A stretch of 17,046 bases of DNA, taken from an uncultured Aminicenantes bacterium (lineage in GTDB: Bacteria; Acidobacteriota; Aminicenantia; UBA2199). The notes under the pieces are model-generated. The model searched no databases. It was not told the DNA's origin and was given only the letters and a program-made list of their open reading frames with translations. Positions within the stretch are counted from its first letter, which is position 1, and every line of letters begins with the position of its first letter. The stretch is from NCBI GenBank assembly GCA_965195285.1, contig CBDAFS010000048.1, positions 1-17,046 of the forward strand. Direction: 5' to 3'. Position numbers and translations under genes: made by a program. Shown in pieces: positions 1 to 16,493 of this stretch.

Positions 1-350
1 TTTTGCTCCGGAATCCCTTCCAGGGCCCGCACCACTTCGTCATCGGTTATTTTCTTGGCATTTTCAATGGTTTTCCCCTTGGCCAGAACCGTCATCATAC
101 TGCTGGTGGAAATGGCTCCCGGACATCCAAAAGTTTTAAACTTGATATCCGCAATCTTTCCGGATTCCACTTTTATCCACAGTTTCAATACATCCCCGCA
201 GGCAGGATCACCGCATAGAGAAAATCCGTCCGCCTCATTTTCTGACATTTCTCCGACATTTTGGGGATTGTTGACGTGGTCCATGACAATTTCATTGTAG
301 AACAGCACAGGGCCGGACATGCTCTCAAAATCGTTTTGATCCGCATTCAA
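1..350 (-). CDS. iscU: IscU/NifU-N type Fe-S cluster scaffold protein, 3' end truncated by the window edge (absent from the ORF track)
   Basis: Manual translation from ATG 320: MSGPVLFYNEIVMDHVNNPQNVGEM...GDPACGDVLKLWIKVESGKIADIKFKTFGCPGAISTSSMMTVLAKGKTIENAKKIT...EGIPEQ. It has the MDHxxNP, CGD and FKTFGC motifs. An in-frame TTG at 350 is preceded by GGGGA, so the start is 350 or 320. Confidence 0.93.
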   Translation of the reverse strand, partial: MNADQNDFESMSGPVLFYNEIVMDHVNNPQNVGEMSENEADGFSLCGDPACGDVLKLWIKVESGKIADIKFKTFGCPGAISTSSMMTVLAKGKTIENAKKITDDEVVRALEGIPEQ

Positions 351-371
351 TTTATTCCCCGACAAAGATCA

Positions 372-1061
372 TTATCCGGATGGATTTTCTTTAAGAAATT
401 TACGGATGGCTTCCCGGATATCTTGTATACTAAATTCATAAACTCTTTTCAATCGTCCCAGCCTTTCGGTTCTGGAAATATCCAAAGGAAGTCCCATAAG
501 ATCGATAATATCACGGGCCGGGATACCGGTTTGCCGCTCAATGGACTGCAGACTGTCCTGACCGGTAATGGTCATTTCTACGGATTCGCTTTTGATTTCA
601 AAGCCAGCGGATGGTTTCTCATTCGGGAGAATTTCTTGGGCCGAATCCACCGGACTTTCGTTGGGCCATTGTCTCTGAAGTTGATCCCACATCTTATTGA
701 ATTTTTTATACTGTACATAATTTTTTGGAGTAACAGCCCAGCTGATGAAAATGATCAGCCCCGCCACCAATACGATGGGAACCAGCATCCAGGCCCTTTT
801 CAACAAACTCCGGGTTTTCCCGACAATCCACCTCCATTCAAGAATCAGATGAATTAAAAGCATTAGGGTAAAAACAATGGCAAAATAAGAATGAATACCT
901 CCCCATTGATGCCGGTGAAGTTCTAAGAAATATTTGGAAGCCTCGGTCACATTGGGACCGGAATCGGCAAAAAAAGCCATGATCAATCCGGTTATCAACA
1001 GTCCGAAAAGAGAAACGAACATGACCACATCTACCCAGAATCTGGTAGTTGTTTTTTTCAT
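372..1061 (-). CDS. DUF4405-like membrane protein (His-containing TM region) with a soluble C-terminal domain
   Basis: Three hydrophobic helices and the pattern D...F...LLITGL...WGGIH...IHLILEW. ATG 1061 follows GGAGG, preferred over GTG 1079. Confidence 0.75.
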   Translation of the reverse strand: MKKTTTRFWVDVVMFVSLFGLLITGLIMAFFADSGPNVTEASKYFLELHRHQWGGIHSYFAIVFTLMLLIHLILEWRWIVGKTRSLLKRAWMLVPIVLVAGLIIFISWAVTPKNYVQYKKFNKMWDQLQRQWPNESPVDSAQEILPNEKPSAGFEIKSESVEMTITGQDSLQSIERQTGIPARDIIDLMGLPLDISRTERLGRLKRVYEFSIQDIREAIRKFLKENPSG

Positions 1062-1088
1062 ATTGTATTTACCCTCCACGTATTGGTC

Positions 1089-1334
1089 TCAATCATCTCT
1101 TCTGCAACCATCCCCGGAAGAACAGGGTGGTGTTTCACACCTTTCCTCCCGGCCACAGCAGGTACTGCCTCCGAACCTGTCTCCGGATTTCAGAATAACC
1201 CCGGGAGCGGTAATCAATTTTTCCATTTGGGTTGATCCGCAGTCAGGACAGACAACCGGTTTCTGGGTCAGGGTTTTCTGGAAGATCTCAACTTTCTGAC
1301 CACATTTCTGGCATTTGTAATCATAAATTGGCAT
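1089..1334 (-). CDS. FmdB-family zinc-ribbon protein with Cys-rich tail
   Basis: MPIYDYKCQKCG...CPDCGS is the FmdB/CxxC_CxxC_SSSS signature. AGGGGAG lies upstream of ATG 1334. Confidence 0.9.
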   Translation of the reverse strand: MPIYDYKCQKCGQKVEIFQKTLTQKPVVCPDCGSTQMEKLITAPGVILKSGDRFGGSTCCGREERCETPPCSSGDGCRRDD

Positions 1335-1350
1335 GACAGCTCCCCTATGA

Positions 1351-1794
1351 TTAATTATATGATTCCATAATCTGCCGATCTTCATCCATCAGGTCTCCAG
1401 CCATATTCTCCATTCTCAGGTTTTTCCAGAATGACAGTTTCTGATGGACCTCCCAGTATTTCAGGGGAATGGGGTGGGTTCCGATCCGCACCGGAAGTCC
1501 GTACCGGCTCTCAATATACTCTTTAAACTGTCGGATTCGCGGACAGGGAGGATATCCGACCACCAAACCGGTAGCCAGGTGAATGGCCTGGGCACCGTTC
1601 TTTTTCATCTCCTCGGGAACATATTCGATGTTGCCTCCCGGACATCCACCGCAATAGGAATACCCCACAACCTCAACCTGCTCATTTTTGGGATAGACGG
1701 AAAATCCCCCAACCCGCTCTTTCAAGGCCCTGAAACATTTTCCACCGCCGCAATTCTGATATCGGCCACAAATGATAATTCCAATCTTGGTCAT
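1351..1794 (-). CDS. CGGC domain protein
   Basis: KIGIIIC...CGGGKCF...CGGCPG...AIHLATG...PPCP...GTH matches the CGGC family pattern. Confidence 0.9.
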   Translation of the reverse strand: MTKIGIIICGRYQNCGGGKCFRALKERVGGFSVYPKNEQVEVVGYSYCGGCPGGNIEYVPEEMKKNGAQAIHLATGLVVGYPPCPRIRQFKEYIESRYGLPVRIGTHPIPLKYWEVHQKLSFWKNLRMENMAGDLMDEDRQIMESYN

Positions 1795-1830
1795 TTCCAA
1801 TTCCTGGAATAGTAGGGCTCCGCTGAGAGG

Positions 1831-2283
1831 CTAATGACAGGCATCGCATTTCCCATAAAAATAAACCTCATGACTACCAATATTGAAACGGTATTTCCTG
1901 GACAGGGATTTCTGTATTTTATCGAAAAACTTGACCTCATCATCAATGAAATCATTGTAGTCAATGATTTTTCCACAGCCCTGGCAGACCAGGTGATGGT
2001 GATGCTCCTTGTAATCCCAGGCCAGCTCATAGCGACTCTGGCCATCGCCAAACTCAAATTTATTAATCAAGCCCATTCTTACCAGTAGATCCAGGGTCCG
2101 GTATACGGTGGTTAAGCCAATATTGGGATAATCTTTCTTGATTTTCATATATATATCTTTGGCCAGAAGGTGATCCTCTGATTTTGAAAGCACAATCAGA
2201 ATCACCTGGCGGGGCAAGGTCATTCGGAATCCTTGCATCTTCAATATTTTTTCCATTTCTATCGACCTTTTATTTTTCCTCAT
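1831..2283 (-). CDS. fur: Fur-family transcriptional repressor
   Basis: RMTLPR, IGLTTVYRTLDLL, HHHHLVCQGCG and C-terminal CDAC. AAGGAG lies upstream of ATG 2283. Metal specificity (Fur/Zur/PerR) is not fixed by the sequence. Confidence 0.92.
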   Translation of the reverse strand: MRKNKRSIEMEKILKMQGFRMTLPRQVILIVLSKSEDHLLAKDIYMKIKKDYPNIGLTTVYRTLDLLVRMGLINKFEFGDGQSRYELAWDYKEHHHHLVCQGCGKIIDYNDFIDDEVKFFDKIQKSLSRKYRFNIGSHEVYFYGKCDACH

Positions 2284-2334
2284 CAGCAACTACTCCTTCT
2301 ATCACCTCTGACAAATCTCTAAAAACCGAATATA

Positions 2335-2372
2335 AATCATTTTCATTTTATACCAAATTTGTATTAAATCAA
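2335..2372 (-). promoter_or_regulatory. Possible internal promoter for fur with a degenerate Fur-box core
   Basis: Minus strand TTGATT-16-TAAAAT (also TGgTATAAA), overlapping AATGAAAATGATT (11/13 to AATGATAATCATT). Confidence 0.4.
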
Positions 2373-2441
2373 GCATACCAGAAACAATTTCTCGAATCAA
2401 CTCGGCAATTATGCCAATGATTCAAATGATGATTTTAACAA

Positions 2442-2744
2442 TCAACCGTTACGTGTTTTTCCCCTTCTTCTTTTTCTGATTCCTTTTCCCGGATTGATAA
2501 TTCCCCTCCGATTATATATTTCATCCGTGTCCGAAATTTTTCTACTCTTCAAAAGTCCAAGAATAAATGATCCGAGATACCCGGCTACCTTACCCATTAT
2601 ATAAGCCGGAGATGATTCTTGTTTCTTCAGGCTTAGCTCAGTTTCCGGTAATTGGTTCAGTTCATTTCCGATAATTTCCAGTTCCAATACCTGGATATCA
2701 TCCTCTTTTTTTTGAATTGAGTCACTTTTATTTGTCAATTTCAC
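2442..2744 (-). CDS. Hypothetical protein: acidic N-terminus, one hydrophobic segment, basic tail
   Basis: 100 aa ORF overlapping the DUF5320 gene by 17 nt. Contains AYIMGKVAGYLGSFILGLL and ends GKGIRKRRRGKTRNG. Confidence 0.6.
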   Translation of the reverse strand: MKLTNKSDSIQKKEDDIQVLELEIIGNELNQLPETELSLKKQESSPAYIMGKVAGYLGSFILGLLKSRKISDTDEIYNRRGIINPGKGIRKRRRGKTRNG

Positions 2745-3042
2745 CCATTCTTTTTTTCAATTCGTTAACGGTCTTTTCCATTGAAGTAATCTGGTTCTTC
2801 AAATAGGATTTTTCCTGTTCGGGGCTGAATTCATTCGGCAGGGGAAACCCAGAATTAACCGGACCATAGCCGAGTCCGAAGCCCGCTGCACGGCCAAAAC
2901 CACGTCCCGGACCGCGTCCCATTCCCCGTCCAAAACCACGTCCAACCGCAAATCCCGGATGCGGAAAATCGCTGCAATAACCAAACCCGCGTCCGGTTCG
3001 TGGACCCATTCCGCCGGGTCCGGAGCCATCTCCAAAAGGCAT
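2728..3042 (-). CDS. DUF5320 family protein
   Basis: MPFGDGSGPGGMGPRTGRGFGYC N-terminus, GRG repeats and a C-terminal coiled coil (EKSYLKNQ...ELKKRMGEI). GAGGAGG RBS. Confidence 0.88.
   Translation of the reverse strand: MPFGDGSGPGGMGPRTGRGFGYCSDFPHPGFAVGRGFGRGMGRGPGRGFGRAAGFGLGYGPVNSGFPLPNEFSPEQEKSYLKNQITSMEKTVNELKKRMGEIDK
2894..2943. repeat. Short coding repeats (GRGF/GRGM/GRGP/GRGF, 12 bp period)
   Basis: CCAAAACCACGTCC occurs at 2894-2907 and 2930-2943. Confidence 0.75.
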
Positions 3043-3043
3043 A

Positions 3044-3286
3044 TTATACCTCCTCTATTTTATTGTTTTGTGCTCTTTGATAATGGGCACCTCCTTCACG
3101 AACCAGGGCGGTACCGCATTGGGGGCATCTTTCGTCCAGACAGGGCTTACCTGCTTTTTTGGGAGCCGTATGCCCGCATTTCAGACATACACAGTTTCCA
3201 GAAGCACCCAGACCACGGCCGTATTGTTGGGAAGATCCCCATCTTTGGCCCCGGGGTCGTTGCCCCCTACCATTTTCGTTGGGCAT
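3044..3286 (-). CDS. Small Gly/Arg-rich protein with two Cys knuckles (putative metal-binding)
   Basis: GNCVCLKCG...GKPCLDERCPQCGTALVRE. Strong AAGGAGGT RBS. Confidence 0.85.
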   Translation of the reverse strand: MPNENGRGQRPRGQRWGSSQQYGRGLGASGNCVCLKCGHTAPKKAGKPCLDERCPQCGTALVREGGAHYQRAQNNKIEEV

Positions 3287-3302
3287 GTCATACCTCCTTA
3301 AT

Positions 3303-3321
3303 GAAAATGATTATCATTAAT
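3303..3321. promoter_or_regulatory. Fur box
   Basis: Minus strand ATTAATGATAATCATTTTC is 16/19 to GATAATGATAATCATTATC, with a perfect AATGAT-N-ATCATT palindrome at 3306-3318. It lies between the -10 and the RBS, and fur is in the downstream operon. Confidence 0.85.
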
Positions 3322-3326
3322 ATATA

Positions 3327-3355
3327 ACTATAGTATAAGTTTGCCAACTTGTCAA
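3327..3355 (-). promoter_or_regulatory. Sigma70 promoter of the Fur-box operon
   Basis: TTGACA (3355-3350), 17 nt spacer, TATAGT (3332-3327). Confidence 0.82.
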
Positions 3356-3387
3356 GTTATTTTGAAAAATAAAATTATGGAGTCGGT

Positions 3388-3861
3388 TTAAAAAACTTCC
3401 TTTTTCAGAATCAGCGCTCGCTCTTGGCAATTCGATTCCATTTCCCGCAAATGATCGCTGATCTGAGTGAATTTGTCAGCAATATTGGTATCGGTCTCAG
3501 CACAGGATAAGGAATCGATGATATCCATGATCATACCGATCAATTCAACCAGCCGGTGATCAATTTGCTTGAGTTTATCTTCATCCAGATGGGCAATGCG
3601 TGCCTTCAAATAAACCGGGATAAAAATTTCATCACGTTCTTCAATCTGGGTTTTCATCCTTTCCATTCTGCGTTTCAGAACGACGATGTGTTCCAGTATC
3701 CATAACATCCGCATGCTTTTGGCCCTTTGTTCACACCCCTCCATCTGCCCGACCAGTTCCTTAAATGCGTTGAGAATCCTGGTCCTGATTATTTTTTCTG
3801 CCTCAACCAGCGGATAGGCATTGTAGCCTTTAAAATCTTTATAAATATCTATTTTTTTCAT
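3388..3861 (-). CDS. Hypothetical alpha-helical protein, last gene of the dsrE-tusA operon
   Basis: 157 aa ORF with AAGGAG RBS, 27 nt downstream of the Fe-S gene. No recognisable motif. Confidence 0.75.
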   Translation of the reverse strand: MKKIDIYKDFKGYNAYPLVEAEKIIRTRILNAFKELVGQMEGCEQRAKSMRMLWILEHIVVLKRRMERMKTQIEERDEIFIPVYLKARIAHLDEDKLKQIDHRLVELIGMIMDIIDSLSCAETDTNIADKFTQISDHLREMESNCQERALILKKEVF

Positions 3862-3888
3862 ATTCAGACTCCTTTTTTGAGTCGGCTG

Positions 3889-5136
3889 CTAAATAATGAG
3901 ATTTTCCTCAACCAGTTCACTTAGATACTTGACCTTTACATCCATACCGTAACCGCTTTTGATGGTCTTCAATTGCATCACACAATTTTCACAGGCCGAG
4001 ACCACAATCTTGGCCCCGGTGGCATCGATTTGATCCTTCTTGGCCTTTCCGCTCTTGATTCTGAATTCCTCATTGTCCAGGGCCACCAGGCCGCCTCCGC
4101 CGCCGCAGCACCAGTTATATTCCCTGGTCGGAGCCATCTCCCGGAAATCAGGGGCAACCTTTTTGATAACTTCTCTGGGTTCATCAAATATACCGCCATT
4201 TCGACCCAATTGACAGGGATCATGGTAGGTGATTCCCTCCTTGACCGCCCCCTCTTTTACTTTGATTTTACCCTGTGAAATATAACGGTGAATGACCTCT
4301 ACTATACTACTGACCTTGAAAGGTAAAGGCCCCACCATATATTTCAGAATTCGGTACGCTGTACCGCATTCTACCATCACCACTTCCTTTACATTCAAGG
4401 CCTTGGCTTCCTTGATTATTCTTTTGGCAATAAAGTTGGCCTTTTCCGGATCACCCACAAAAGTACCGAAATTGACACCTTCAAAATAACTCAGGCACCA
4501 GTTTTCCTTGGCGGCATTGAAGATGACGGCCGGGGTGATAATCGAATGAGCGCCGGCCAGGCCGACATAAAGTATATTGGCCTCCTTTTTCTCCATGGGG
4601 ATCAGGCCTTCCGATGATTTGAGTTTTAGCCTTTGCTGAACCTGTTTTTCCAGATCTTTGATAACTGCCTGGTAACCTTCCTTGAATTCATCGATGCTTT
4701 TACCCTTCTCCACCGCCGCATCGGCCAGCATAACCAGTTCTTCCGGAGCGGTTCCATTCCCAATTAACAGTAATTTGGCAATACCCAGTATATAGGGCAT
4801 ATCAATACCAAACGGACAATAAAGCATACAGCGTCGGCACATGGTACAGGAATAAGCCGCTTCCAGAACTTCATCCATGACCTGATCACTTATTTTGGTG
4901 GAATCACCCCAGAAAGGCCACAACAGGCCGGACAAACGGAAATGTTTCCGGTAAATTTTTCTGACCACTTCTGCCCGGTGAACCGGTGAATACTCCTTTT
5001 TGGGGATTCCATAGTAGACATGGCAGGTGTCATAGCAAATACCGCAACGGGTACATAGATCCAGATAATATCTCATGGGCCGGGTCAGCCTGGATTTAAT
5101 GAGTTTTTTTAGTTCTTTTCGCTTTTGTTTTTCCAT
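3889..5136 (-). CDS. HdrD/DsrK/TmcB/HmcF-like Fe-S oxidoreductase (two 4Fe-4S motifs plus CCG domain)
   Basis: CTRCGICYDTC and CTMCRRCMLYCP; ECG; YHDPC...CCGGGGG...SACENC. Confidence 0.9.
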   Translation of the reverse strand: MEKQKRKELKKLIKSRLTRPMRYYLDLCTRCGICYDTCHVYYGIPKKEYSPVHRAEVVRKIYRKHFRLSGLLWPFWGDSTKISDQVMDEVLEAAYSCTMCRRCMLYCPFGIDMPYILGIAKLLLIGNGTAPEELVMLADAAVEKGKSIDEFKEGYQAVIKDLEKQVQQRLKLKSSEGLIPMEKKEANILYVGLAGAHSIITPAVIFNAAKENWCLSYFEGVNFGTFVGDPEKANFIAKRIIKEAKALNVKEVVMVECGTAYRILKYMVGPLPFKVSSIVEVIHRYISQGKIKVKEGAVKEGITYHDPCQLGRNGGIFDEPREVIKKVAPDFREMAPTREYNWCCGGGGGLVALDNEEFRIKSGKAKKDQIDATGAKIVVSACENCVMQLKTIKSGYGMDVKVKYLSELVEENLII

Positions 5137-5140
5137 GATA

Positions 5141-5857
5141 TTATTTCCTCTTTATTTTATGGGAAAAAAACACAAAGATCGAGTGAATCATCTTACTGAA
5201 GGGAAAGAAAATCATGAACAGGTTGGCCAGAAAGATATGAATCACCAGCAGGATATAATGGGGAGATTCGGAAATCTCTTCCGGTATGATGGGGTTAAAG
5301 GCAAACAGGCTGCTCAGATAAGCCCGGAAATCCCCGACCTGAATATCAAACCCGGATTCTGAATACCTGGCGGCCAGATGCATATGGCTGCCAAAGATAA
5401 AGGTCAGGAACAACACAATAAGTAGAATATAATCTTCCGGAATCGAGATCTGGCGTACAGGCGAGCTGAATCGTCTCATCAAAAAATACAGGGTGGTAAA
5501 TGTCAATACAATTCCCACCCAGCCGGCTCCCAGAAACACTTCATGGGAAATCACCTGTATGATTTTAAAATCCTTTATCAACTCCAGATGACCGATAAAC
5601 AGCAGCAAAAATGCCAGGTGGAAGGCCACGATAGCCAGCCATAAAATCTTGCTGCTGCGCCAGGCAGCCGGAACCAGAAAGGAGTCCTTGAGTACTCCCA
5701 GCGGTTTGGGCAATTTTCGGGGGAAAATACCCAGGGTACCCTGAATGGGGGGAGAAAAAACCACCAGCATAAACTTGAACAGTATACCCAGAATGAGGGT
5801 TGCAAAGGCAATATAAACCATGGGCACCATGACAAAATAATAAATACTATTCCACAT
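5141..5857 (-). CDS. NarI/DsrM/TmcC-like di-haem cytochrome b membrane subunit
   Basis: About five TM helices. His pairs H-x9-H (FHLAFLLLFIGH) and H-x17-H (HIFLANLFMIFFPFSKMIH) match the NarI-family spacing, and PFSKxxH is present. Confidence 0.9.
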   Translation of the reverse strand: MWNSIYYFVMVPMVYIAFATLILGILFKFMLVVFSPPIQGTLGIFPRKLPKPLGVLKDSFLVPAAWRSSKILWLAIVAFHLAFLLLFIGHLELIKDFKIIQVISHEVFLGAGWVGIVLTFTTLYFLMRRFSSPVRQISIPEDYILLIVLFLTFIFGSHMHLAARYSESGFDIQVGDFRAYLSSLFAFNPIIPEEISESPHYILLVIHIFLANLFMIFFPFSKMIHSIFVFFSHKIKRK

Positions 5858-5895
5858 GATTCTTTATCCTTACCTTGGAATTGACGGCCAAGGAC

Positions 5896-6138
5896 CTACT
5901 TTAATTTCTTAATATAGAACTTGGATACCGATTCTTCCCTGTCAACCTTGATAATTTCATTGCCGCTGGTTTTGGCCCAGGCGGGAAAATCCGAATGGGC
6001 ACCGGGATCGGTTGTCTCTGCTACCATGATTTGGCCGATCTGCATGGTTTTTATTCTTTGACTCACCTTCACCACCGGTAAAGGGCAGGGCATGTCTTTC
6101 AGATCCATTTCCACATCAACTTTAATGTCTTCACTCAT
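5896..6138 (-). CDS. tusA: TusA/SirA-family sulfur carrier
   Basis: DLKDMPCPLPVVK...TTDPGAHSDFPAWAKTSGNE...FYIKK, 80 aa. AGGAGG RBS. Confidence 0.93.
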   Translation of the reverse strand: MSEDIKVDVEMDLKDMPCPLPVVKVSQRIKTMQIGQIMVAETTDPGAHSDFPAWAKTSGNEIIKVDREESVSKFYIKKLK

Positions 6139-6169
6139 TTAAATCCTCCTGTTTAATATAATTATTTTC

Positions 6170-6712
6170 TTAAATAAAAAGCTGAATTTTACTGTTACCA
6201 GCCACTTCCAAAAATGAAGCCACGCCGACGAAATCCTTGTGGGGATAATCAATCATCTCTTCTCTGGAAAATCCCATCAGATCCATTGACATTTCACAGA
6301 TGTGGATCTTTACACTCAGCTCTGCTGCCAGATCAATCATCTGTTCCAGGGACTGGGTATTCTTTTTCTTCATCAGTTTTTTCATCATGGTTGTGCCCAT
6401 TCCACCCATATTCATTTTCGATAATTTCACCCGGGAGGGACCCTTGGGCAGCATGAACCCGAACATTTTACCAAAAATATCTTTTCCCTTGGACTTGAAT
6501 TTCTTTTTTCTGAGTGCCGCGGTAGCCCAGAAAGTAAAAAACATGACCACCTCAAGCCCCATGGCCACGGCTCCGGTGGCAATAATGAAGGCGGCCAGTA
6601 GTTTGTCCAGTTCTCCACTGAACACCACCATTGCCAACTGATTCCTCTCGTTTGATTGCTCTAAGTCTTTCATCTGCTTTTTTAAATCCTGAATGGTTGT
6701 ATTGACATCCAT
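6170..6712 (-). CDS. DsrE2/DsrE-like sulfurtransferase (DsrE/F/H superfamily)
   Basis: VVFSGELDK..AAFIIATGA...MFFTFW...LSKMNMGGMG...ICEMSMDLMG...GVASFL. GGAGG lies upstream of ATG 6712. Confidence 0.9.
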   Translation of the reverse strand: MDVNTTIQDLKKQMKDLEQSNERNQLAMVVFSGELDKLLAAFIIATGAVAMGLEVVMFFTFWATAALRKKKFKSKGKDIFGKMFGFMLPKGPSRVKLSKMNMGGMGTTMMKKLMKKKNTQSLEQMIDLAAELSVKIHICEMSMDLMGFSREEMIDYPHKDFVGVASFLEVAGNSKIQLFI

Positions 6713-6765
6713 GTTTTCCTCCAGAATCAATTGTTCGCTTTCCCTCAATTGATTGTTATCGTATC

Positions 6766-6795
6766 ATTATAAAAAAATTTTTTCCATATTTGCAA
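6766..6795 (-). promoter_or_regulatory. Internal sigma70-like promoter for the dsrE-tusA-cytb-FeS operon
   Basis: TTGCAA (6795-6790), 18 nt spacer, TATAAT (6771-6766). Confidence 0.6.
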
Positions 6796-6811
6796 ACCTG
6801 ATATCATTGTC

Positions 6812-7063
6812 TTAATTACCCTTGATATTCAACAACCGGTTGATTTCATTTTTATTGAATCCAACAACCGGCCGGTTGTTGATCAGGGTTACCGGAACAC
6901 CCTGCTGGCCGGTCCGTCTTATCATATCCCGGGCTGCCTTCTCATCCCGTGTGATATCCACTTCCTTGAAGCGGATATCGTTTTTTCTAAGATACTGTTT
7001 GACCGTCCGGCACCAGGAACAGGTGGACGTAGTAAACAGTATAACACTGGGTTGGGTTTTCAT
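6812..7063 (-). CDS. Glutaredoxin-like protein (NrdH/YruB type)
   Basis: FTTSTCSWC...TGQQGVPV...VVGF, 83 aa. Confidence 0.9.
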   Translation of the reverse strand: MKTQPSVILFTTSTCSWCRTVKQYLRKNDIRFKEVDITRDEKAARDMIRRTGQQGVPVTLINNRPVVGFNKNEINRLLNIKGN

Positions 7064-7079
7064 TTTATTCTCCTATCAC

Positions 7080-7499
7080 TCAAAGAATGTTTATGGTTTT
7101 TTTGATGCTCTTGCTGAAACTTTCAATTTCTTGACGGGTGAACATCTTCTGAATTTTTTTCTCACAGCTGGCTCTCATCAGCTCAATTTGCCGTTTTATT
7201 TTTAAACCTTTTCTAGACAGGCCAATCTGACATTTTCTCCGGTCCATTGAATCAAAATTCCTGAGAATGAATCCCTTTTTGACCATTCGTTCCACGATAC
7301 GACTGGCCCGGGAAGGCGAAAGGGTCATTTTTTTTGAAAAATGTTTACTGGAAACAACCTCACCGGGATTCAGTTTCTCTATCCCGTTGAATTCCGACTG
7401 TGACAGATTGGATTCTTTCATAATTTCTGTTTCATTCTCGATACACTTGGACTTTAGCCGGGATATCAGATCCATCATTCTTTCAGTTCGATGTTCCAT
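7080..7499 (-). CDS. MarR-family transcriptional regulator
   Basis: LSPSRASRIVERMVKKGFILR...DRRK...LSRKG winged-helix pattern. Start uncertain (7514, 7499 or later). Confidence 0.88.
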   Translation of the reverse strand: MEHRTERMMDLISRLKSKCIENETEIMKESNLSQSEFNGIEKLNPGEVVSSKHFSKKMTLSPSRASRIVERMVKKGFILRNFDSMDRRKCQIGLSRKGLKIKRQIELMRASCEKKIQKMFTRQEIESFSKSIKKTINIL

Positions 7500-7521
7500 T
7501 ATGTGTATTATCAATTCATGT

Positions 7522-7836
7522 TCAAACGGAATTAATCAGGGTTTGTTCATCCTGAACACCGATAAATTTTTTTTCTACTTTACCGTCTCTGAAAATCAGC
7601 AGGGTTGGAATGCTAGCGATTTGATATTTTTGGGCCGTGGCCATATTTTCATCGACATTCAGTTTGCAGACCTTGGCTTTGTCTCCGATTTTTCCGGATA
7701 CATTTTTCAAGATGGGACCCTGTAGCCGGCAGGGCATACACCAGGGTGCCCAGAAATCCACTATTGTCACTCCATCGGATATCACCTGGTCAAAATTTTG
7801 ATCATTGATGTCTATCACACCGTTACTTTCGTTCAT
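7522..7836 (-). CDS. trxA: Thioredoxin
   Basis: VDFWAPWCMPC...KLNVDEN...SIPTLLIFRDG. AAGGAG lies upstream of ATG 7836. The longer ORF-track start at 7890 falls inside the promoter. Confidence 0.93.
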   Translation of the reverse strand: MNESNGVIDINDQNFDQVISDGVTIVDFWAPWCMPCRLQGPILKNVSGKIGDKAKVCKLNVDENMATAQKYQIASIPTLLIFRDGKVEKKFIGVQDEQTLINSV

Positions 7837-7857
7837 TTCAATCTCCTTTTCGATTTG

Positions 7858-7881
7858 ATTGCTAATAGCAATAATTGCTAT
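7858..7881. promoter_or_regulatory. Overlapping palindromes, candidate MarR operator
   Basis: ATTGCTA-A-TAGCAAT (7858-7872) and ATAGCAAT-A-ATTGCTAT (7865-7881), just downstream of the -10. Confidence 0.7.
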
Positions 7882-7888
7882 CAACAAC

Positions 7889-7916
7889 ATTATAGCAGTT
7901 ATTTTAAACTTGTCAA
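7889..7916 (-). promoter_or_regulatory. Consensus sigma70 promoter of trx-marR-grx
   Basis: TTGACA (7916-7911), 16 nt spacer, TATAAT (7894-7889) with an extended TGn. Confidence 0.85.
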
Positions 7917-7953
7917 CCCCAAAATAATTTTTTTGTAAACATAACCAATTTGG

Positions 7954-7981
7954 TTGACTTTAGAATATTATCATGTATAAT
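7954..7981 (+). promoter_or_regulatory. Divergent sigma70 promoter for the YHS gene
   Basis: TTGACT (7954-7959), 16 nt spacer, TATAAT (7976-7981). Confidence 0.72.
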
Positions 7982-8012
7982 CAATTACTATAATTTATTT
8001 AAGGAGAGTGAT

Positions 8013-8519
8013 ATGAATAAATTTTCCGTTTTTTTAGTGGTTCTGATTTTTCTGGGATCCATGCTGGTCATCCACACCGGCAACACCCTCTATGCAGACA
8101 GCAAATGTAAAACACCCTGCAAAACCAAAGTGGTGAAGTGCCCGGTCAGCGGAGAGGTGATCGCCAAGGATGCCAAGAAGATTACCACCGAATACAAGGA
8201 AAAAACCTATTACTTCTGCTGTGAAAAATGCAAAGTCGAATTTGAAAAAAATCCTGAAAAATACACAAAATCTTGTTCCCACCAGGATGTTTACTATTGT
8301 CCCAAAGACGGATGCAAGTACAAATCAGACAAAGCGGGTAAATGTCCGACATGTGGTGTTGAATTGAAAAAGCATGTGCACAAAGTTACCTATCTCTGCC
8401 CCATGAAAGAATGCAATCACAAATCCGATAAACCGGGAAAATGCCCCAAGTGCGGAATGGAATTGAAAAAAGCCAAGCTTGACAGCCACACCAAATCCAA
8501 GTGTGGCGATAAGAAATAA
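8013..8519 (+). CDS. Exported YHS-domain protein with two heavy-metal-binding-domain-like repeats
   Basis: Signal-peptide-like N-terminus; CPVSG...YKEKTYYFCCEKCKVEFEKNPEKY (YHS/TRASH); two YxCP...KxGKCPxCGxEL units. AAGGAG lies upstream of ATG 8013. Confidence 0.87.
   Translation: MNKFSVFLVVLIFLGSMLVIHTGNTLYADSKCKTPCKTKVVKCPVSGEVIAKDAKKITTEYKEKTYYFCCEKCKVEFEKNPEKYTKSCSHQDVYYCPKDGCKYKSDKAGKCPTCGVELKKHVHKVTYLCPMKECNHKSDKPGKCPKCGMELKKAKLDSHTKSKCGDKK
8292..8471 (+). repeat. Intragenic duplication, 99 bp (33 aa) period
   Basis: YYCPKDGCKYKSDKAGKCPTCGVELKK versus YLCPMKECNHKSDKPGKCPKCGMELKK. Confidence 0.85.
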
Positions 8520-8598
8520 ACCAAAAAAGAAGAAAAATAATCATTTAAATATTTAAAAAATATTTGTTTGGAGAGATAATAAATCTTATTGAATTAAT

Positions 8599-8628
8599 TT
8601 GCAATTTTATTATACCTAATTCTATAAT
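8599..8628 (+). promoter_or_regulatory. Possible promoter immediately before the ECF sigma start
   Basis: TTGCAA, 18 nt spacer, TATAAT ending 8 nt before ATG 8637. The region is very AT-rich, so a chance match is possible. Confidence 0.5.
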
Positions 8629-8636
8629 AATTATGA

Positions 8637-9179
8637 ATGCCAGAGAATAAGATCTCCATTGAAAAAATAGTAGATGACTATTATCAAAAAATCTATAAAT
8701 TATCCCTTTTTTACCTGAAAGACAAACAAGAATCAGAAGAAATAACCCAGGAAATTTTCTTAAAGGTTATAAAAAAATTATCCACTTTTAAAGGTCAGTC
8801 AAATATTTATACCTGGATTTACCGGATCGCCTCCAATACCCTAATCAACTATCTAAAGAGAAAAAAATTAGTTCGGTTTCTTTCTTTAGATAATATCTCG
8901 ATAAAGGATGAATATAAGAATAATATATCAAAAATGGATCCTGCCATTTATTTAGAAATAAATGAAACCAAAAACACCCAAATAGAACAATTGGGAAAAG
9001 CAATCAATTTATTTTCCAATAGAGAAAAAAAAGCCTTTTATTTATTTTATTACGATAACCTGAAACAAAAGGAAATTGCCAGGATCATGAAAACTTCCAA
9101 ATCCGCGGTTGAATCCCTTATACATAAAGCCAAAAAAAAACTCAAAAAAAATCTAAAAAATATTGATGAACTTATTTAA
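8637..9179 (+). CDS. ECF sigma-70 factor
   Basis: Region 2 (EEITQEIFLK...FKGQSNIYTWIYRIASN) and region 4 (LKQKEIARIMKTSKSAVESLIHKAK), 180 aa. Confidence 0.93.
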   Translation: MPENKISIEKIVDDYYQKIYKLSLFYLKDKQESEEITQEIFLKVIKKLSTFKGQSNIYTWIYRIASNTLINYLKRKKLVRFLSLDNISIKDEYKNNISKMDPAIYLEINETKNTQIEQLGKAINLFSNREKKAFYLFYYDNLKQKEIARIMKTSKSAVESLIHKAKKKLKKNLKNIDELI

Positions 9180-9191
9180 TATTATTTGAAT

Positions 9192-12100
9192 TCAAGTCTT
9201 TCTCTTTTTAAACTGAAATTCTTTTATCCAACAATAACTGACCGGGACGATGAAGAGGGTGATGAGAGCCAGGAACATCCCCCCAAATGAGGGGATAGCC
9301 ATAGGTACCATAATATCTGCACCCCTACCTGTAGAAGTTAAAACAGGTAAAAGTGCTAAAATTGTAGTGCCAGTTGTCATCAAAGCCGGTCTAATCCTGC
9401 GCAGTCCAGCCTCCACTGTTGCCTCACGTATCTCTTCCAATGTAGCGGGTGACTTTCTGGCAAACTCCTGGTCCAAGTAGGTAGCTACAATCACACCATT
9501 GTCGGAGGCAATTCCAAAGAGTGCTAAAAAACCCACCCAAACGGCAACACTGAGGTTGATGGGATGAATCTGGAAAAGATTTTGCATATTTACCCCAAAA
9601 ACTGAAAAATTGAGGAACCAGGACTGCCCATATAACCAGATCATAATAAAACCACCGGCCCAAGCAACAACAATTCCTGAGAATACAAGCATGGTGGTGG
9701 AGACATGTTTAAACTGGAAGTAGAGGATCAAAAAGATAATAAAGAGTGCCAGAGGAAGAACCACCATTAGTTTTTTTTCAGAACGGACCTGGTTTTCATA
9801 ACTGCCGGCAAAAGTATAACTGACACCGGCAGGTATCTCGAGTTCACCTGATTTTATTTTTTGTTTCAGATATTCAGAGGCATCTTCAACCACATCAACC
9901 TCGGCAAATCCGGCTTTCATGTCAAAAAGGACATACCCCACCAGAAAAGTATCTTCACTTTTAATAACCTGAGGTCCACGAACATAATTAATTTTGGCCA
10001 ACTGGGTTATGGGAATCTGAGCCCCTTTAGGCGAAGGCACCAATATTTTAGACAGAGTTTCAATATTACTGCGCAATTCCCGCATATAACGAACCCTGAC
10101 CGGATAGCGCTCCCGGCCTTTAACGATAGAGGTGATTTTTTTTCCACCAATTGCCACTTCGATTACCTGCTGGACTTTCTGCAGCATAATCCCATACCGG
10201 GCGATGGCATTTCTGTCGATTTCAATTTCCAGATAGGGTTTACCAATGATCCGGTCGGCAATAACGGCTGTCGGTTCGATAGAATGAACTTCTTTAAGTA
10301 ATTTTTCCAGTTGTAAGCCAACCTTTTCAATAGTCTCCAGGTCCGGACCTTTTATCTTGATTCCCATTGGGGCCCGCATACCGCTCTGAAGCATAACGAT
10401 CCGGGCGGCAATGGGCTGTAGTTTCGGTGCAGAAGTGGTTCCGGGTATTTTGGCTGCCTTGACAATCTCATCCCAGATATCATCGGGGGATTTGATCCCT
10501 TTCCAGGCATTTCTTCCCGGATTCAGTTCAGGATCAAGAGCAGGCCTCCACAAGCGGAACGGATAACCCGATGAATCGGGGATTAAGTTTCCGTTATTAT
10601 CCCTGATAAATTTACCTTTTATCCAATAGGGCATCCCATCTGCCGATAGTAGTGGATTCCCCTGTTCATCCCGGAAATAATCATTTTTATTCCTTTTTAA
10701 CCGGAACCGCAAACGCCTCCCTTTTTTATCGGTTAGATATTCCGGCTTGTAATTGATAACGGTTTCAATCATGGAAACCGGTGCCGGATCAAGCGGTGTA
10801 TCGGCTCTTCCCAGTTTTCCCACTGCGGTATCGATTTCAGGGATATTGGTAAAGGCCATATCCTGTTTACTTAAAACATCCAGGACTTCTCCAATTGATG
10901 CATGGGGCATGGTGGTGGGCATATAAAGGTAGGCTCCTTCATCAAGCGGTGGCATGAATTCTTTACCCAAACCCGGGAACGAATGGGAAATTGAACTGAT
11001 AATAGGTGCTTTTTTAACAAATCCCGGCAGCCAGCCAAAAAAAGTATTAAATCCCATCCATGCCATGGCACCTATTAGCAACACAGTAAGGACTACAGAA
11101 AAAAAGAGCGCTTTATGAACCAAAACCCACTTTAAGATGGGACCATAAACCCGTTGAAAAAAGGTAAAAAAGGCCAAAACACCACCAATGATAGCTGCCA
11201 CAAAAATCAGATTTAGAATCAATCCTTTTTCAGGACCCAGAGGCAGCCAGTGTTTTGACAAAAGAATGGCAACTATTAAAGCTGCCAGATAATTTACTCC
11301 TTTTTTTACCAGTTTCTGTATTTTTTCCGATACCTTCCGCTCCCATAATTGGTAGACGCCCATTATAAAAATTATCAATCCTATCCACCAGGCAATATAA
11401 AAAACGAATATAACACCAACAATTAATAAAACAATACTGAGATTTTTTTTTCTTGATCCTTTTTTACTTTTTCCTGAAAAAAGTAGATGCGCGAATGGTG
11501 GAATAATGGTAAGAGCAACAATGATTGAAGCTATCAAGGCAAAAGTCTTGGTAAAAGCCAATGGTTTAAATAACTTTCCTTCTGCTGCTACCATGGTAAA
11601 AACGGGCAAAAAACTGACCACAGTGGTAGCAACTGCCGTTACCACAGCACTTCCTACTTCACTGGTGGCGCGGAATACAACAGAGAGTCTGTTTTCATCC
11701 GGTTTTGCCTTGCCCAGATGTTTGAGAATGTTTTCAACGATTACAATGCCCATATCCACCATGGTACCGATTGCAATAGCAATACCCGATAAAGCAACAA
11801 TATTGGCATCCACACCAAAATATTTCATGGCAATAAAGGACATGAGGACGGCCAAAGGAAGTAAGCCTGATATAAGGACCGAGCTCCTCAGGTTTAACAA
11901 CATGATCAGCACCACAATAATAGTCACCAATATTTCTTCAGTTAAAGCGGTATTCAATGTTTCAAGGGTTTCATGGATCAATCCGGTGCGATCGTAAAAG
12001 GGAACAATTGTCACCTGGCTTGTTCGGCCGTCAGCCAGATTTTTTTTCGGAAGACCTGGCGAGATCTCCTCTATTTTTTTCTTAAGATTTTTTATAGCTG

Positions 12101-13085
12101 CCAATGGATTATCTCCGTAACGGACCACAACAACTCCTCCGACAACCTCTGTTCCCTCCTTATCCAGCGCCCCCCGCCGCAAAGCGGGACCAAGGCTAAC
12201 TTTCCCGATATTTTTTATATAAATAGGGACATTATTGTTTACTTTTACAACTGAGTTTTCGATATCCTCTATTTTTTTCACAAATCCAATACCCCGGATC
12301 ACGTACTCAACTTTATTGATCTCTATGGTACGGGCACCTACATCCATATTTGACATTTTTACCGCCATAAACACCTGGTCCAGGGAGACATTGTGGGCCC
12401 TCATGGCATCTGGATCGACATCCACCTGGTACTCCTGGACAAACCCCCCTACCGAAGCAACTTCACTAATCCCGTTGGCCGAGAGCAATGCATATCGAAC
12501 ATACCAGTCCTGAACAGTCCTCAATTCATGAAGGTCCCAACCACCAGTAGAATTTCCTTTTTCATCCCGTCCTTCCAGAGTATACCAGTAAATCTGTCCC
12601 AGAGCTGTGGCGTCCGGTCCGAGAATGGGTTGTACACCCTCTGGAAGTGTCCCTGCCGGCAGTGAATTAAGTTTTTCCAGAATCCGGGAACGGGACCAAT
12701 AAAAATCGATTTTTTCTTTAAAAATAACATAAATACTAGAAAACCCGAACATGGAATAACTTCTAACGGTTTTAACTCCGGGAACTCCCAGCAGTGATAC
12801 AGTTAGGGGGTAACTGATCTGATCCTCAACATCCTGGGGTGACCGACCCATCCACTTGGTAAAGACAATCTGCTGATTTTCCCCGATATCGGGAATGGCA
12901 TCAACTGGTACCGGATCCCGAGGTACTCCTCCCAGATTCCAGTCAAAGGGAGCGACCATGACTCCCCAAAAGAGGATAAGCAGAACAATAAGGGTTACCA
13001 CCAGTTTATTGTTTAGACAGAAAAGAATAATCCTGTCAAGAAGGGACTCGGGCTGTGCCGATAAGTTATTGTCTGAATTACTCAT
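9192..13085 (-). CDS. cusA: CusA/SilA-type heavy-metal RND permease (enlarged, 1297 aa)
   Basis: DAIPDIGENQ, LGPDATALG, GIAIAIGTMVD, GKLFKPLAFTK, EFMPPLDEG, RIRPALMT. Met positions equivalent to the CusA triad appear in LYMP, SMIET and IVMLQSG. Confidence 0.93.
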   Translation of the reverse strand: MSNSDNNLSAQPESLLDRIILFCLNNKLVVTLIVLLILFWGVMVAPFDWNLGGVPRDPVPVDAIPDIGENQQIVFTKWMGRSPQDVEDQISYPLTVSLLGVPGVKTVRSYSMFGFSSIYVIFKEKIDFYWSRSRILEKLNSLPAGTLPEGVQPILGPDATALGQIYWYTLEGRDEKGNSTGGWDLHELRTVQDWYVRYALLSANGISEVASVGGFVQEYQVDVDPDAMRAHNVSLDQVFMAVKMSNMDVGARTIEINKVEYVIRGIGFVKKIEDIENSVVKVNNNVPIYIKNIGKVSLGPALRRGALDKEGTEVVGGVVVVRYGDNPLAAIKNLKKKIEEISPGLPKKNLADGRTSQVTIVPFYDRTGLIHETLETLNTALTEEILVTIIVVLIMLLNLRSSVLISGLLPLAVLMSFIAMKYFGVDANIVALSGIAIAIGTMVDMGIVIVENILKHLGKAKPDENRLSVVFRATSEVGSAVVTAVATTVVSFLPVFTMVAAEGKLFKPLAFTKTFALIASIIVALTIIPPFAHLLFSGKSKKGSRKKNLSIVLLIVGVIFVFYIAWWIGLIIFIMGVYQLWERKVSEKIQKLVKKGVNYLAALIVAILLSKHWLPLGPEKGLILNLIFVAAIIGGVLAFFTFFQRVYGPILKWVLVHKALFFSVVLTVLLIGAMAWMGFNTFFGWLPGFVKKAPIISSISHSFPGLGKEFMPPLDEGAYLYMPTTMPHASIGEVLDVLSKQDMAFTNIPEIDTAVGKLGRADTPLDPAPVSMIETVINYKPEYLTDKKGRRLRFRLKRNKNDYFRDEQGNPLLSADGMPYWIKGKFIRDNNGNLIPDSSGYPFRLWRPALDPELNPGRNAWKGIKSPDDIWDEIVKAAKIPGTTSAPKLQPIAARIVMLQSGMRAPMGIKIKGPDLETIEKVGLQLEKLLKEVHSIEPTAVIADRIIGKPYLEIEIDRNAIARYGIMLQKVQQVIEVAIGGKKITSIVKGRERYPVRVRYMRELRSNIETLSKILVPSPKGAQIPITQLAKINYVRGPQVIKSEDTFLVGYVLFDMKAGFAEVDVVEDASEYLKQKIKSGELEIPAGVSYTFAGSYENQVRSEKKLMVVLPLALFIIFLILYFQFKHVSTTMLVFSGIVVAWAGGFIMIWLYGQSWFLNFSVFGVNMQNLFQIHPINLSVAVWVGFLALFGIASDNGVIVATYLDQEFARKSPATLEEIREATVEAGLRRIRPALMTTGTTILALLPVLTSTGRGADIMVPMAIPSFGGMFLALITLFIVPVSYCWIKEFQFKKRKT

Positions 13086-13100
13086 TTTCCTTTCTCCCGA

Positions 13101-15152: not shown

Positions 15153-15162
15153 TCTTCTCCAT

Positions 15163-16479
15163 TTATAAATTTTCAGATAAATCTTTTCCCAACAACATCT
15201 CCAGTTCAGCAAGACGTTGGTTATAAGTGGCCAGTGACCGTTCATAAGCCAACTCAAAGCCGAGAAGCGTACGCTGGGAATCTATAAAATTTAAAAAATC
15301 CACTTTTCCGGCTTCAAATGCGGACTGGGTAACCGCCAAGGCTTGTTTGGCCTTGGGTATCAGAGCATCCCGGTAAAGTGATAATTTTCGTACGGAATCT
15401 TTTACCTTATAAAAGATCATTTCCACCTGGGACATTAAATTGTTCTCTTTTTCTTCTTTTTGCAGTTTAACCGACTTGTACCTGGCATTGGCCTCTCTTA
15501 CCGAGGCATTATATTTTTTATACTTTATTGGTAAATTTATAGACAGCATGGCCACCAGCGGATCCTTTCCGCTATCAACTACACCCGGCATTATGGTATT
15601 ACCGGTAAATATATAATCCAATCCAATGGAAAAATTCGGGTAATAGTTTTTTTTGGCCAGTTTTATGACAATTTTTTCTTTGGAGGTCATGTAACCCAAC
15701 GCCTTCAGGTCAGGATTATTTTCTTTCAACAGGGTGATTATTTGAGGATAATCCAATGTCATAGTTGTTCTGACGATGTTTTGCGGAACAGGTAAGGATT
15801 CATGGAGAGACCTGTTCAAAGCTGAATTTAGTTTGGCGGTAACCGGCCGGATCATATCCTTCATGGTGTTATACCAATCCTGCAACTTATCCAGTTCAAC
15901 CTGGACTTTTATCAAATTGGAGTGAGATGCTTTCCCAGTACTATATTTGATTCTAATGGCCCCTTCAAGGTATTCCAATAATTGTATATTTTCTTTGATA
16001 ACCAAAAGGGCTTTGGTAATATAATAGTACTCATAATAGGCATTTTTTACCCGGTAAAACAGATCTGATTTTACTTTCTCATAGTTTTGCTTCTGGGCAT
16101 TGGCCATTTCCGCTGCGGCGTTACCTTTTAGTTTCAGTTTACCGAACCAGGGGAACATCTGCATGATGCCTATTTTACTCCTTTGTGGCCCAACCCGGGT
16201 TTCAACCTCCTTGATGAAATAGGCAAAATTGAGTTTTGGGTCTGGCAGAGCCCGAACTTGAGGAATTCGCTCAAGAGCTGCCTGCCAGCGGTTAAATGCG
16301 GCTTTTAATCCCGGGTTATTCAAAAGAGCATAAGTGGACAAATCGGATAAAGACGATTCTTCCGTAATCTTTACCGGGGTAGGATTTATCTGTTCTCCAG
16401 CCAGCTGAAAACCAGAGATTATAAAAATAATATATACAACCAAAATGGCTATATATTTAGATAAAAATAATTTCTTCAT
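15163..16479 (-). CDS. TolC/CusC-family outer-membrane efflux protein
   Basis: Signal peptide, ALLNNPGLKAA..LPDP..QMFPWFGK, YYPNFSIG, AFEAGKVDFL. GGGAG lies upstream of ATG 16479. Confidence 0.9.
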   Translation of the reverse strand: MKKLFLSKYIAILVVYIIFIISGFQLAGEQINPTPVKITEESSLSDLSTYALLNNPGLKAAFNRWQAALERIPQVRALPDPKLNFAYFIKEVETRVGPQRSKIGIMQMFPWFGKLKLKGNAAAEMANAQKQNYEKVKSDLFYRVKNAYYEYYYITKALLVIKENIQLLEYLEGAIRIKYSTGKASHSNLIKVQVELDKLQDWYNTMKDMIRPVTAKLNSALNRSLHESLPVPQNIVRTTMTLDYPQIITLLKENNPDLKALGYMTSKEKIVIKLAKKNYYPNFSIGLDYIFTGNTIMPGVVDSGKDPLVAMLSINLPIKYKKYNASVREANARYKSVKLQKEEKENNLMSQVEMIFYKVKDSVRKLSLYRDALIPKAKQALAVTQSAFEAGKVDFLNFIDSQRTLLGFELAYERSLATYNQRLAELEMLLGKDLSENL

Positions 16480-16493
16480 TGGTTCTCTCCCGA

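Follow-up and report, generated by a model that had tools for sequence, protein, structure and literature searches.

A conserved gene module joining TusA and DsrE2 to a NarI-type cytochrome b and a DsrK-like protein: a predicted DsrC-independent, quinone-linked oxidoreductase for carrier-bound sulfane sulfur

A stretch of DNA from an uncultured Aminicenantes bacterium (GCA_965195285.1, CBDAFS010000048.1 positions 1-17,046; the window below is this whole 17,046-nt stretch) carries on its minus strand, at 3889-6748, four co-directional genes for a DsrE2-type sulfur carrier, a TusA-type sulfur carrier, a NarI-type cytochrome b and an iron-sulfur (Fe-S) protein of the CCG type (Table 1). This four-gene module is predicted to encode a DsrC-independent, quinone-linked oxidoreductase for the sulfane sulfur bound to TusA and DsrE2, a reading to which we give a probability of about 0.55. 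Its probable function, a connection between the membrane quinones and carrier-bound sulfur, would be of an undescribed kind. Its gene content, its cofactor and active-site residues, the separate clade of its Fe-S subunit, its conserved linkage and its occurrence without Dsr are observed directly. An earlier sequence-only reading of this DNA had proposed a stand-alone quinol:protein-persulfide oxidoreductase; the separate clade, the linkage, a docking model and Dsr-free carriers of the module speak for that proposal, and co-occurrence with Dsr genes and the weakness of its quinol part temper it.

The linkage of the four genes is borne out by their open reading frame (ORF) coordinates and Pfam matches, with gaps of 31, 38 and 4 nt in the order dsrE2-tusA-cytochrome b-Fe-S gene. 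The motifs that had been described as intact (the TusA CPxP, the DsrE Cys, four haem His, two 4Fe-4S motifs and a CCG site) are indeed so, and are conserved across homologues. In the Fe-S subunit, the ferredoxin-type Cys (C28/31/34/38 and C97/100/103/107) and the CCG set (C257, C308, C343, C344, C382 and C385) are each kept in 29-30 of 30 homologues. The CCG domain is a single stretch (302-390), and the first half-site keeps C257 only. The protein scores below the cut-offs for DsrK (NF045796, 245.4 bits versus 400 in the window; 249.7 bits, with no match above the cut-off, in the whole genome), TmcB (NF045724, 208.6 bits versus 735) and HmcF (NF045711, 198.6 bits versus 750). Solved structures gave one distant match to it, 9ojn_A, in the CCG region (E 7e-11).

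Three residues, Cys329, His331 and Asp500 in the numbering of A. fulgidus (Af), are named as strictly conserved in DsrK in a cryo-EM study of Af DsrMKJOP (10.64898/2026.08.25.746951). The non-ligating C257 of the module matches Af Cys329 and is kept in 29 of 30 module-clade sequences. The Asp is found in 5/5 reference DsrK sequences (CAID) and is replaced by Cys385 (CENC) in the window and in 30/30 module-clade sequences; TmcB and HmcF have CHNC at this position. The window and the four other crown sequences shown have ECGT, with Thr259 at least 90% conserved in alignment A2, and the His of ECGH is present in the basal clade members L089 and P0122. A DsrK insertion of about 23 residues is missing. 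Judged by its scores and residues, the Fe-S subunit is DsrK-like, with a single predicted non-cubane cluster, yet it is not DsrK.

Phylogeny agrees with this assignment. A homologue scan using one genome per species gave 227 relatives, and reference sequences were taken from five sulfate-reducer or Dsr-bearing genomes (5 DsrK, 2 TmcB and 2 HmcF passing their cut-offs, plus one further TmcB just under its cut-off). The careful tree (IQ-TREE, LG+G4) has 46 rows, after 18 of 64 were dropped as long, compositionally odd or near-duplicate module rows. It places nine module rows and P0121-P0123, fused and basal members included, in one clade (support 100/99), separate from the clade that holds all DsrK (100/99) and from a TmcB/HmcF clade (100/100). 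A quick tree of all 64 rows under a mixture model recovers the module, DsrK and TmcB/HmcF groups with SH-aLRT values of 98, 100 and 100. These trees contain neither methanogen HdrD nor the DsrK of Desulfurella amilsii. Nesting within canonical DsrK, which could have overturned the earlier proposal, was thus not found: the subunit has its own clade and a sub-cut-off score. Inside the module clade, the 661-aa P0123 naturally combines a NarI domain and the Fe-S protein in one fused chain, which supports a two-subunit complex of cytochrome b and Fe-S protein.

The remaining three proteins also have the residues expected of their families. In TusA, C18, P19 and P21 of the motif C18-P-L-P21 are invariant in 26/26 and 25/25 homologues (two alignments); C18 is the sole Cys, and the protein passes the Pfam gathering score as well as having the Cys-Pro-x-Pro motif. 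The sole Cys of DsrE2, C151 (192-aa numbering), is kept in 26/26 homologues. This protein passes the Pfam score (PF13686) and falls below the DsrE2 equivalog cut-off (NF047629, 80.9 bits versus 210). A simple hydropathy scan finds one hydrophobic stretch only (38-68); DsrE2 has been described with two transmembrane helices (PMC12998232). The cytochrome b has the His pairs H80/H90 (i, i+10) and H207/H225 (i, i+18), with H80 and H207 conserved in 25/26 and H90 and H225 in 26/26 homologues. We take this spacing to be the haem-ligand pattern of NarI, and the five hydrophobic segments of the protein fit the NarI fold. Its DsrM score (NF038037) is 52.6 bits, under the cut-off of 300, and no match to it was found among solved structures.

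In the informative loci, the association of these genes is conserved without exception. The top 29 of the 227 relatives (67-80% identity) are nearly all from metagenome-assembled genomes of Spirochaetota/Leptospirales; relatives beyond these have at most 34% identity and are mostly TmcB or HmcF orthologues. The order dsrE2-tusA-cytochrome b-Fe-S gene is found in 24/24 close loci (L006-L034) having enough upstream DNA; of the other five, one has a truncated cytochrome b at the contig start and four are cut by contig ends. Another 20 spirochaete loci, including 13 new ones, all have the same order. The proposed linkage to tusA and dsrE2 therefore held in every informative locus, that is, in 37/37 non-redundant crown-clade loci with enough flanking DNA. 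Since the flanking genes vary among loci, the conserved unit is the four genes.

A deep-branching version occurs in two genomes of the same class (L089 and L117, 46-49% identity). It keeps dsrE2 and tusA immediately upstream, but the place expected for the NarI-type gene is taken by the gene for a divergent membrane protein of 210 aa. This membrane subunit (L089, 838-1470, and L117, in genomes G027 and G037) has no Pfam NarI match; by eye, the His matching H80 and H225 are kept and the equivalents of H90 and H207 are missing, a pattern that looks as if one of the two haems had been retained.

In samples of 401 genomes each, orthologues (E <= 1e-95) are present in about a tenth of Spirochaetota (41/401) and in 3/401 genomes of the window's phylum, the window's own counted. 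Of 40 relatives, just two have a crown-type copy (80% identity), one genome being of the same genus and the other of the same family. Public protein collections hold more than 120 clusters of at least 58% identity, all named '(Fe-S)-binding protein' or 'Fe-S oxidoreductase', and one 80%-identical protein carries an Acidobacteriota label. Since the window and the same-genus locus L006 are nested in the spirochaete crown clade (100/100 in both trees), lateral acquisition of the module by the window's lineage is suggested. No compositional sign of transfer was seen in the GC content (44.7% in the module, 42.2% in the genome).

The module can occur in genomes without Dsr, the pathway of sulfate respiration, and its Dsr-free carriers include many uncultured anaerobes. 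A survey of the window ORFs upheld the claim that dsrAB, dsrC and cytochrome c genes are lacking there; the CxxCH motif is absent from window ORFs of at least 60 aa, save at the C-terminus of Fur. The window's genome (G000, 94.9% complete) has neither dsrA nor an above-cut-off DsrK. Five spirochaete carriers (G041-G045) were looked at more closely, and four of them (G041-G044) have neither an above-cut-off dsrA nor any DsrC/TusE; in G042 the match belongs to one record of 4.9 Mb, apparently a closed chromosome, with the title 'chromosome: 1'. In the fifth, G045, the module coexists with a canonical DsrK (738 bits), dsrA and DsrC, all on other contigs. Across the 401 spirochaete genomes, dsrA is missing from 24 of the 41 carriers. 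Nor was an sHdr-type cluster found among the four CCG proteins of the window's genome (LbpA was not searched for). sHdr consists of two HdrB and two HdrC paralogues plus HdrA. The genome's only HdrB-like (with two CCG) and HdrC-like pair is at L126 (G000:C31:4500-13500, ORFs 3745-4623 and 4684-5091), adjoining genes for the alpha, beta and gamma subunits of a 2-oxoacid:ferredoxin oxidoreductase and for an FAD protein.

A second sulfur-relay cluster is present elsewhere in the window's genome, at L005 (G000:C49:58730-62029; ORFs 1-237, 234-1493, 1486-1803 and 1769-2290). It consists, in order, of an ArsR-type winged-helix fragment (by eye), a type III sulfide:quinone reductase (SQR; NF049943, 650 bits versus a cut-off of 525), a TusE/DsrC-family protein that keeps only the penultimate Cys, and a soluble DsrE2-like protein. 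The module does not depend on a type III SQR as a fixed partner, since this enzyme is missing from 5/5 spirochaete carriers.

Docking of TusA at the CCG site, suggested earlier as a check, was modelled with the Fe-S subunit (58-row alignment) and TusA (25 sequences aligned, 23 rows used). The complex scored 0.86, 0.85 and 0.86 in its runs, against 0.00 for the best of three controls; at least 97% of the contacts are common to the runs, and the partner pLDDT is 88. In calibration, the mark for this score was reached by 58/80 solved complexes and by 2/110 mismatched pairs. The modelled interface comprises residues 17-23 (the Cys18 loop) and 43-54 of TusA and residues 133-162, 193-199, 217-223, 351-352, 383 and 387 of the Fe-S subunit, of which 351-352, 383 and 387 border the cluster ligands C343/C344 and C382/C385. 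The Cys loop is thus placed on the pocket, and the model supports binding of TusA at the CCG pocket. No similar complex was found in the PDB by sequence.

From these elements the following mechanism can be proposed, in which we infer the quinone link, the relay through Cys257, the product and the direction. The four genes would encode a self-contained membrane complex independent of DsrC, acting as a quinol:TusA/DsrE2-persulfide (sulfane sulfur) oxidoreductase. The NarI-type di-haem cytochrome b would exchange electrons with the quinone pool and pass them across the membrane to the DsrK-like subunit, which is predicted to hold two [4Fe-4S] clusters and one non-cubane [4Fe-4S] cluster; in DsrMK, quinol electrons move via the b haems to the non-cubane cluster (PMC10861901). 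TusA would carry a persulfide on Cys18 and exchange its sulfane sulfur with the putative partner Cys151 of DsrE2. Loaded TusA, in the modelled pose, would dock over the cluster pocket, and the sulfur would be relayed via the non-ligating Cys257 and then reduced at the cluster to H2S, with regeneration of the carrier thiol. Persulfidation has been described for Af Cys329, with a proposed relay of sulfur from DsrC to the cluster (10.64898/2026.08.25.746951). The reductive direction is favoured by analogy, though not firmly. In a more far-reaching version, which we regard as unlikely, the module would add a third kind to the terminal reductases of sulfur respiration: a quinol:carrier-persulfide reductase that is derived from DsrMK, contains no molybdenum and has TusA-DsrE2 in place of DsrC. 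It would yield energy from intracellular zero-valent sulfur in Dsr-less anaerobes such as Leptospirales-like spirochaetes and Aminicenantia-type bacteria.

Several points weigh against this mechanism. The crown clade has Thr at the position of the proposed proton-relay His of DsrK, TmcB and HmcF, and its chemistry may therefore differ from that of DsrK. The calibration of the docking score is only roughly valid here because the complex model used custom shallow alignments. Independence from Dsr is also less clean than had been claimed. One TusE/DsrC-family gene, ending in ...SCV with a single C-terminal Cys, is present on another contig of the window's genome, so that the genome search came up empty for dsrA and an sHdr-type cluster and not for this family. 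The absence of dsrA and DsrC holds for the window and for four of the five carriers; it is not a property of the module, as dsrA (above cut-off or nearly) is found in 17/41 spirochaete carriers, against 8/360 non-carriers. These counts indicate association by lineage and not dependence, because the genomes are related and many are incomplete, and a functional tie of the module to dissimilatory sulfur metabolism is possible. The module is, in sum, a separate system that can stand without Dsr and is commoner in Dsr-bearing lineages.

The quinol part of the mechanism faces difficulties of its own. MqnA/D family genes, indicative of quinone supply, are present in 5/5 spirochaete carriers and MenA above its cut-off in 2/5; the window's genome lacks MqnA/D as well as any above-cut-off MenB, and its one MenA-like prenyltransferase (L116) scores below the cut-off (77 bits versus 102). 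The quinol part is therefore weakest in the window's own organism, where no menaquinone pathway is recognisable. The type III SQR implies that a quinone is present there, and together with the NarI-type cytochrome b it points to quinone salvage, an unrecognised pathway or an assembly gap. Energetics adds a further difficulty: with a potential of about -74 mV, menaquinol donates electrons poorly to persulfide or S0 (about -200 to -270 mV). Persulfide reduction by menaquinol is uphill. The sulfide-oxidising, carrier-loading direction is energetically just as plausible and is a serious rival.

In that rival, which we consider rather unlikely and still the best placed of the alternatives, the same complex would work oxidatively: it would oxidise sulfide, or carrier thiol plus sulfide, at the CCG site, load TusA/DsrE2 and reduce quinone. 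It would then be a carrier-coupled analogue of SQR that supplies persulfide sulfur for biosynthesis or detoxifies sulfide. Electron flow from sulfide to menaquinone is downhill on standard potentials. The stretch is found in metagenomes of marine sediments and cold seeps, habitats that may well be sulfidic, and the window's genome, with its SQR-TusE-DsrE cluster, would handle sulfide-derived sulfane sulfur. Elsewhere, TusA donates persulfide sulfur to biosynthetic and oxidative pathways (PMC4175335; PMC3397948). The closest characterised relatives, DsrK and HdrD, are however reductases in anaerobes (PMC10861901), and with a NarI-type topology the reduction of quinone at the outer face would be expected to consume membrane potential.

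The neighbourhood of the window suggests another alternative, namely that the module is a device for thiol/thiosulfonate redox homeostasis within a thiol/metal stress response and has no part in energy metabolism. Its substrates would be a mixed disulfide or trisulfide of TusA and DsrE2, or a carrier-bound thiosulfonate derived from tetrathionate or thiosulfate. The module lies behind trx-marR-grx and among genes for Fur, NifU, CGGC and YHS/HMBD proteins, an ECF sigma factor and Cus/Czc-type efflux. With one Cys in each carrier, a disulfide or trisulfide between the two proteins could mimic the two Cys of DsrC. In Metallosphaera, DsrE3A and TusA bind thiosulfate from tetrathionate (PMC4175335). 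The stress-type context, however, is common only to the same-genus L006, and the spirochaete flanks differ; we hold this explanation to be quite improbable.

If the module were just a paralogue of DsrMK (or TmcBC/HmcEF) that works for the Dsr pathway and neighbours tusA/dsrE2 by chance, this would fit the best NCBIfam match (DsrK, 245 bits), the enrichment in dsrA-bearing Spirochaetota and the DsrE-like genes beside dsrMK in the D. amilsii dsr operon (PMC6378623), but it is very hard to reconcile with the three missed equivalog cut-offs, the separate and fully supported clade, the Cys in place of the strictly conserved Asp, the missing insertion, the Dsr-free carriers (with no dsrA in the window's genome), the canonical DsrK held by G045 besides the module, and the invariant linkage.

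Comparison with known systems places the predicted quinone-linked carrier-persulfide oxidoreductase closest to DsrMK, the core of DsrMKJOP, a menadiol:DsrC-trisulfide oxidoreductase (PMC10861901; 10.64898/2026.08.25.746951). Both consist of a di-haem cytochrome b of the NarI type and a cytoplasmic partner subunit. This subunit has two [4Fe-4S] clusters, a non-cubane cluster formed by the only complete CCG motif, and a conserved non-ligating Cys (C257, Af Cys329), and in both systems the expected substrate is protein-bound zero-valent sulfur. The module differs in scoring under both the DsrK and the DsrM cut-offs, in its separate clade, in having CENC instead of CAID and, in the crown, Thr at the position of His331, and in lacking the insertion. 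Its linkage is always to tusA and dsrE2 and in no case to dsrC or dsrAB, and it is present in genomes without any DsrC/TusE.

The nearest published case is the dsr operon of D. amilsii, where two DsrE-like genes adjoin dsrMK together with genes for a single-Cys DsrC, DsrL and DsrAB (PMC6378623). The DsrE carriers were proposed by its authors to act reductively and to compensate for the missing DsrC Cys (PMC6378623). There, however, the carriers accompany DsrAB and DsrC, whereas the module has TusA and neither of these; its Fe-S subunit is assigned to another clade, in trees from which the D. amilsii DsrK is absent.

HdrDE of methanogens and TmcBC and HmcEF of sulfate reducers resemble the module in that a cytochrome b in the membrane is paired with an HdrD-type CCG protein in the cytoplasm, and TmcB and HmcF share the supernumerary Cys (CHNC). 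TmcB/HmcF form a distinct clade (100/100) and are linked to periplasmic cytochromes c. HdrD/HdrB use two non-cubane clusters on a small-molecule heterodisulfide (10.64898/2026.08.25.746951), whereas the module has one CCG stretch. Adjacent genes of the tusA and dsrE families are also found in the rhd-tusA-dsrE2 and dsrE3-tusA sets of Dsr or sHdr oxidisers and in the YTD cluster of disproportionators, which is yedE-tusA-dsrE plus hypothetical proteins (PMC4175335; PMC8528874; PMC12998232). They share with the module a persulfide or thiosulfonate relay with its CPxP and DsrE Cys residues. In those sets the relay delivers to soluble DsrAB/DsrC or sHdr, or adjoins a YedE-type permease, whereas the relay of the module shares an operon with its own membrane cytochrome b/CCG enzyme. 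Full-text literature searches turned up no account of the four-gene unit; subscription reviews of TusA/DsrC, or supplements, may mention one.

The ends of the module in the window differ in part from the first description. The dsrE2 ORF reaches a TTG at 6748 (6170-6748, 192 aa); the true start is likely the ATG at 6712, where a GGAGG sits 5 nt ahead and the resulting 180 aa equal the homologue alignment length. The claim of a dedicated promoter did not stand: the 10/12 promoter-like site is no more frequent than in shuffled sequence (14 such sites in the region versus 10.7 +/- 3.0, which is chance level), and a perfect 12/12 site lies further upstream at 7916-7889, ahead of trx. The four-gene unit is as described, except that a fifth gene follows it closely. 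This gene is also downstream of the module in L006, L012, L013, L014 and L017; its 157-aa product has three invariant Cys (C43, C120 and C145, 6/6) and is predicted to be a four-helix bundle (model pLDDT 83). No family was found for it in Pfam, NCBIfam or Atlas, nor any fold match at E<=0.001. It may be a fifth module component or a sensor.

Table 1. Features of the module and adjoining genes in the window
Feature	Coordinates	Strand	Remarks
dsrE2-type sulfur carrier	6170..6712	-	PF13686, E 1e-47, 162 bits; probable 180 aa
tusA-type sulfur carrier, 80 aa	5896..6138	-	PF01206, E 1e-17, 63.9 bits versus gathering score 28.6
NarI/DsrM-type membrane cytochrome b, 238 aa	5141..5857	-	PF02665, E 7e-14, 52.4 bits versus gathering score 22.9
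DsrK/HdrD-like putative catalytic subunit, 415 aa	3889..5136	-	PF02754, E 3e-14; PF13183, E 2e-10
Promoter-like site TTGCAA-18-TATAAT upstream of dsrE2	6766..6795	-	10/12 matches
Fifth gene, 157 aa, no known family	3388..3861	-	27 nt downstream of the Fe-S gene; possible accessory
trx-marR-grx block	6812..7890	-	Thioredoxin 7522-7890, MarR regulator 7080-7514, YruB-type glutaredoxin 6812-7063

Among the 29 close loci, the upstream trx-marR-grx block is common only to the window and L006. Beyond it, at 7950-16934, lies a metal-stress block. Besides a metal-binding YHS/HMBD protein and an ECF sigma factor, it encodes an RND efflux system of the Cus/Czc type, made up of an ACR_tran protein of 1297 aa, an outer-membrane factor and a CusB-like protein that carries two HMBD domains and DUF3347. 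Genes for Fur, a CGGC-domain protein, a DUF4405 membrane protein and NifU lie on the other side of the module. In nine spirochaete loci (e.g., L007:3612-3848), a 78-aa YgaP-like transmembrane protein (PF11127, E 2e-14) is encoded just upstream of dsrE2. YgaP is a membrane rhodanese in E. coli, and the YgaP-like protein may be a further sulfur-handling partner. Downstream in 4-5 loci are genes for a FadL-type porin, a MerR regulator and a small CxxCH protein. The last, an exported-looking 80-aa protein without a Pfam family (L016:9652-9894 and three other spirochaete loci), is encoded two to three genes past the module, behind the porin and the Cys-rich MerR regulator.

Metagenomes of marine sediments and cold seeps contain DNA nearly identical to the window (20 rows; 12 studies, of which one is perhaps the source). 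In contigs from RNA libraries of two runs, coverage is limited to parts of the Fe-S gene, marR/trx and the 5' end of dsrE2, at depths of 3-19. No conclusion on expression of the module is drawn, because such contigs are no proof of transcription and could stem from carried-over DNA, and uncovered parts carry no information. At window 2403-3104 (p100 at 2442-2744 and DUF5320 at 2728-3042, minus strand), the depth in two metatranscriptome-library contig sets is 600-900, and these small genes, annotated without function, may be very highly expressed.

In the prevailing view, DsrC is the sole substrate protein of DsrMK-type enzymes, and relays of TusA and DsrE deliver sulfur to soluble Dsr or sHdr enzymes. 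If the prediction is true, the module would open a new route between the quinone pool and the sulfane sulfur of the cytoplasm. It would bear on how anaerobes that do not reduce sulfate handle or respire zero-valent sulfur in sulfidic sediments, as well as on the evolution of DsrMK and on the reading of metagenomic genes annotated as 'Fe-S oxidoreductase'.

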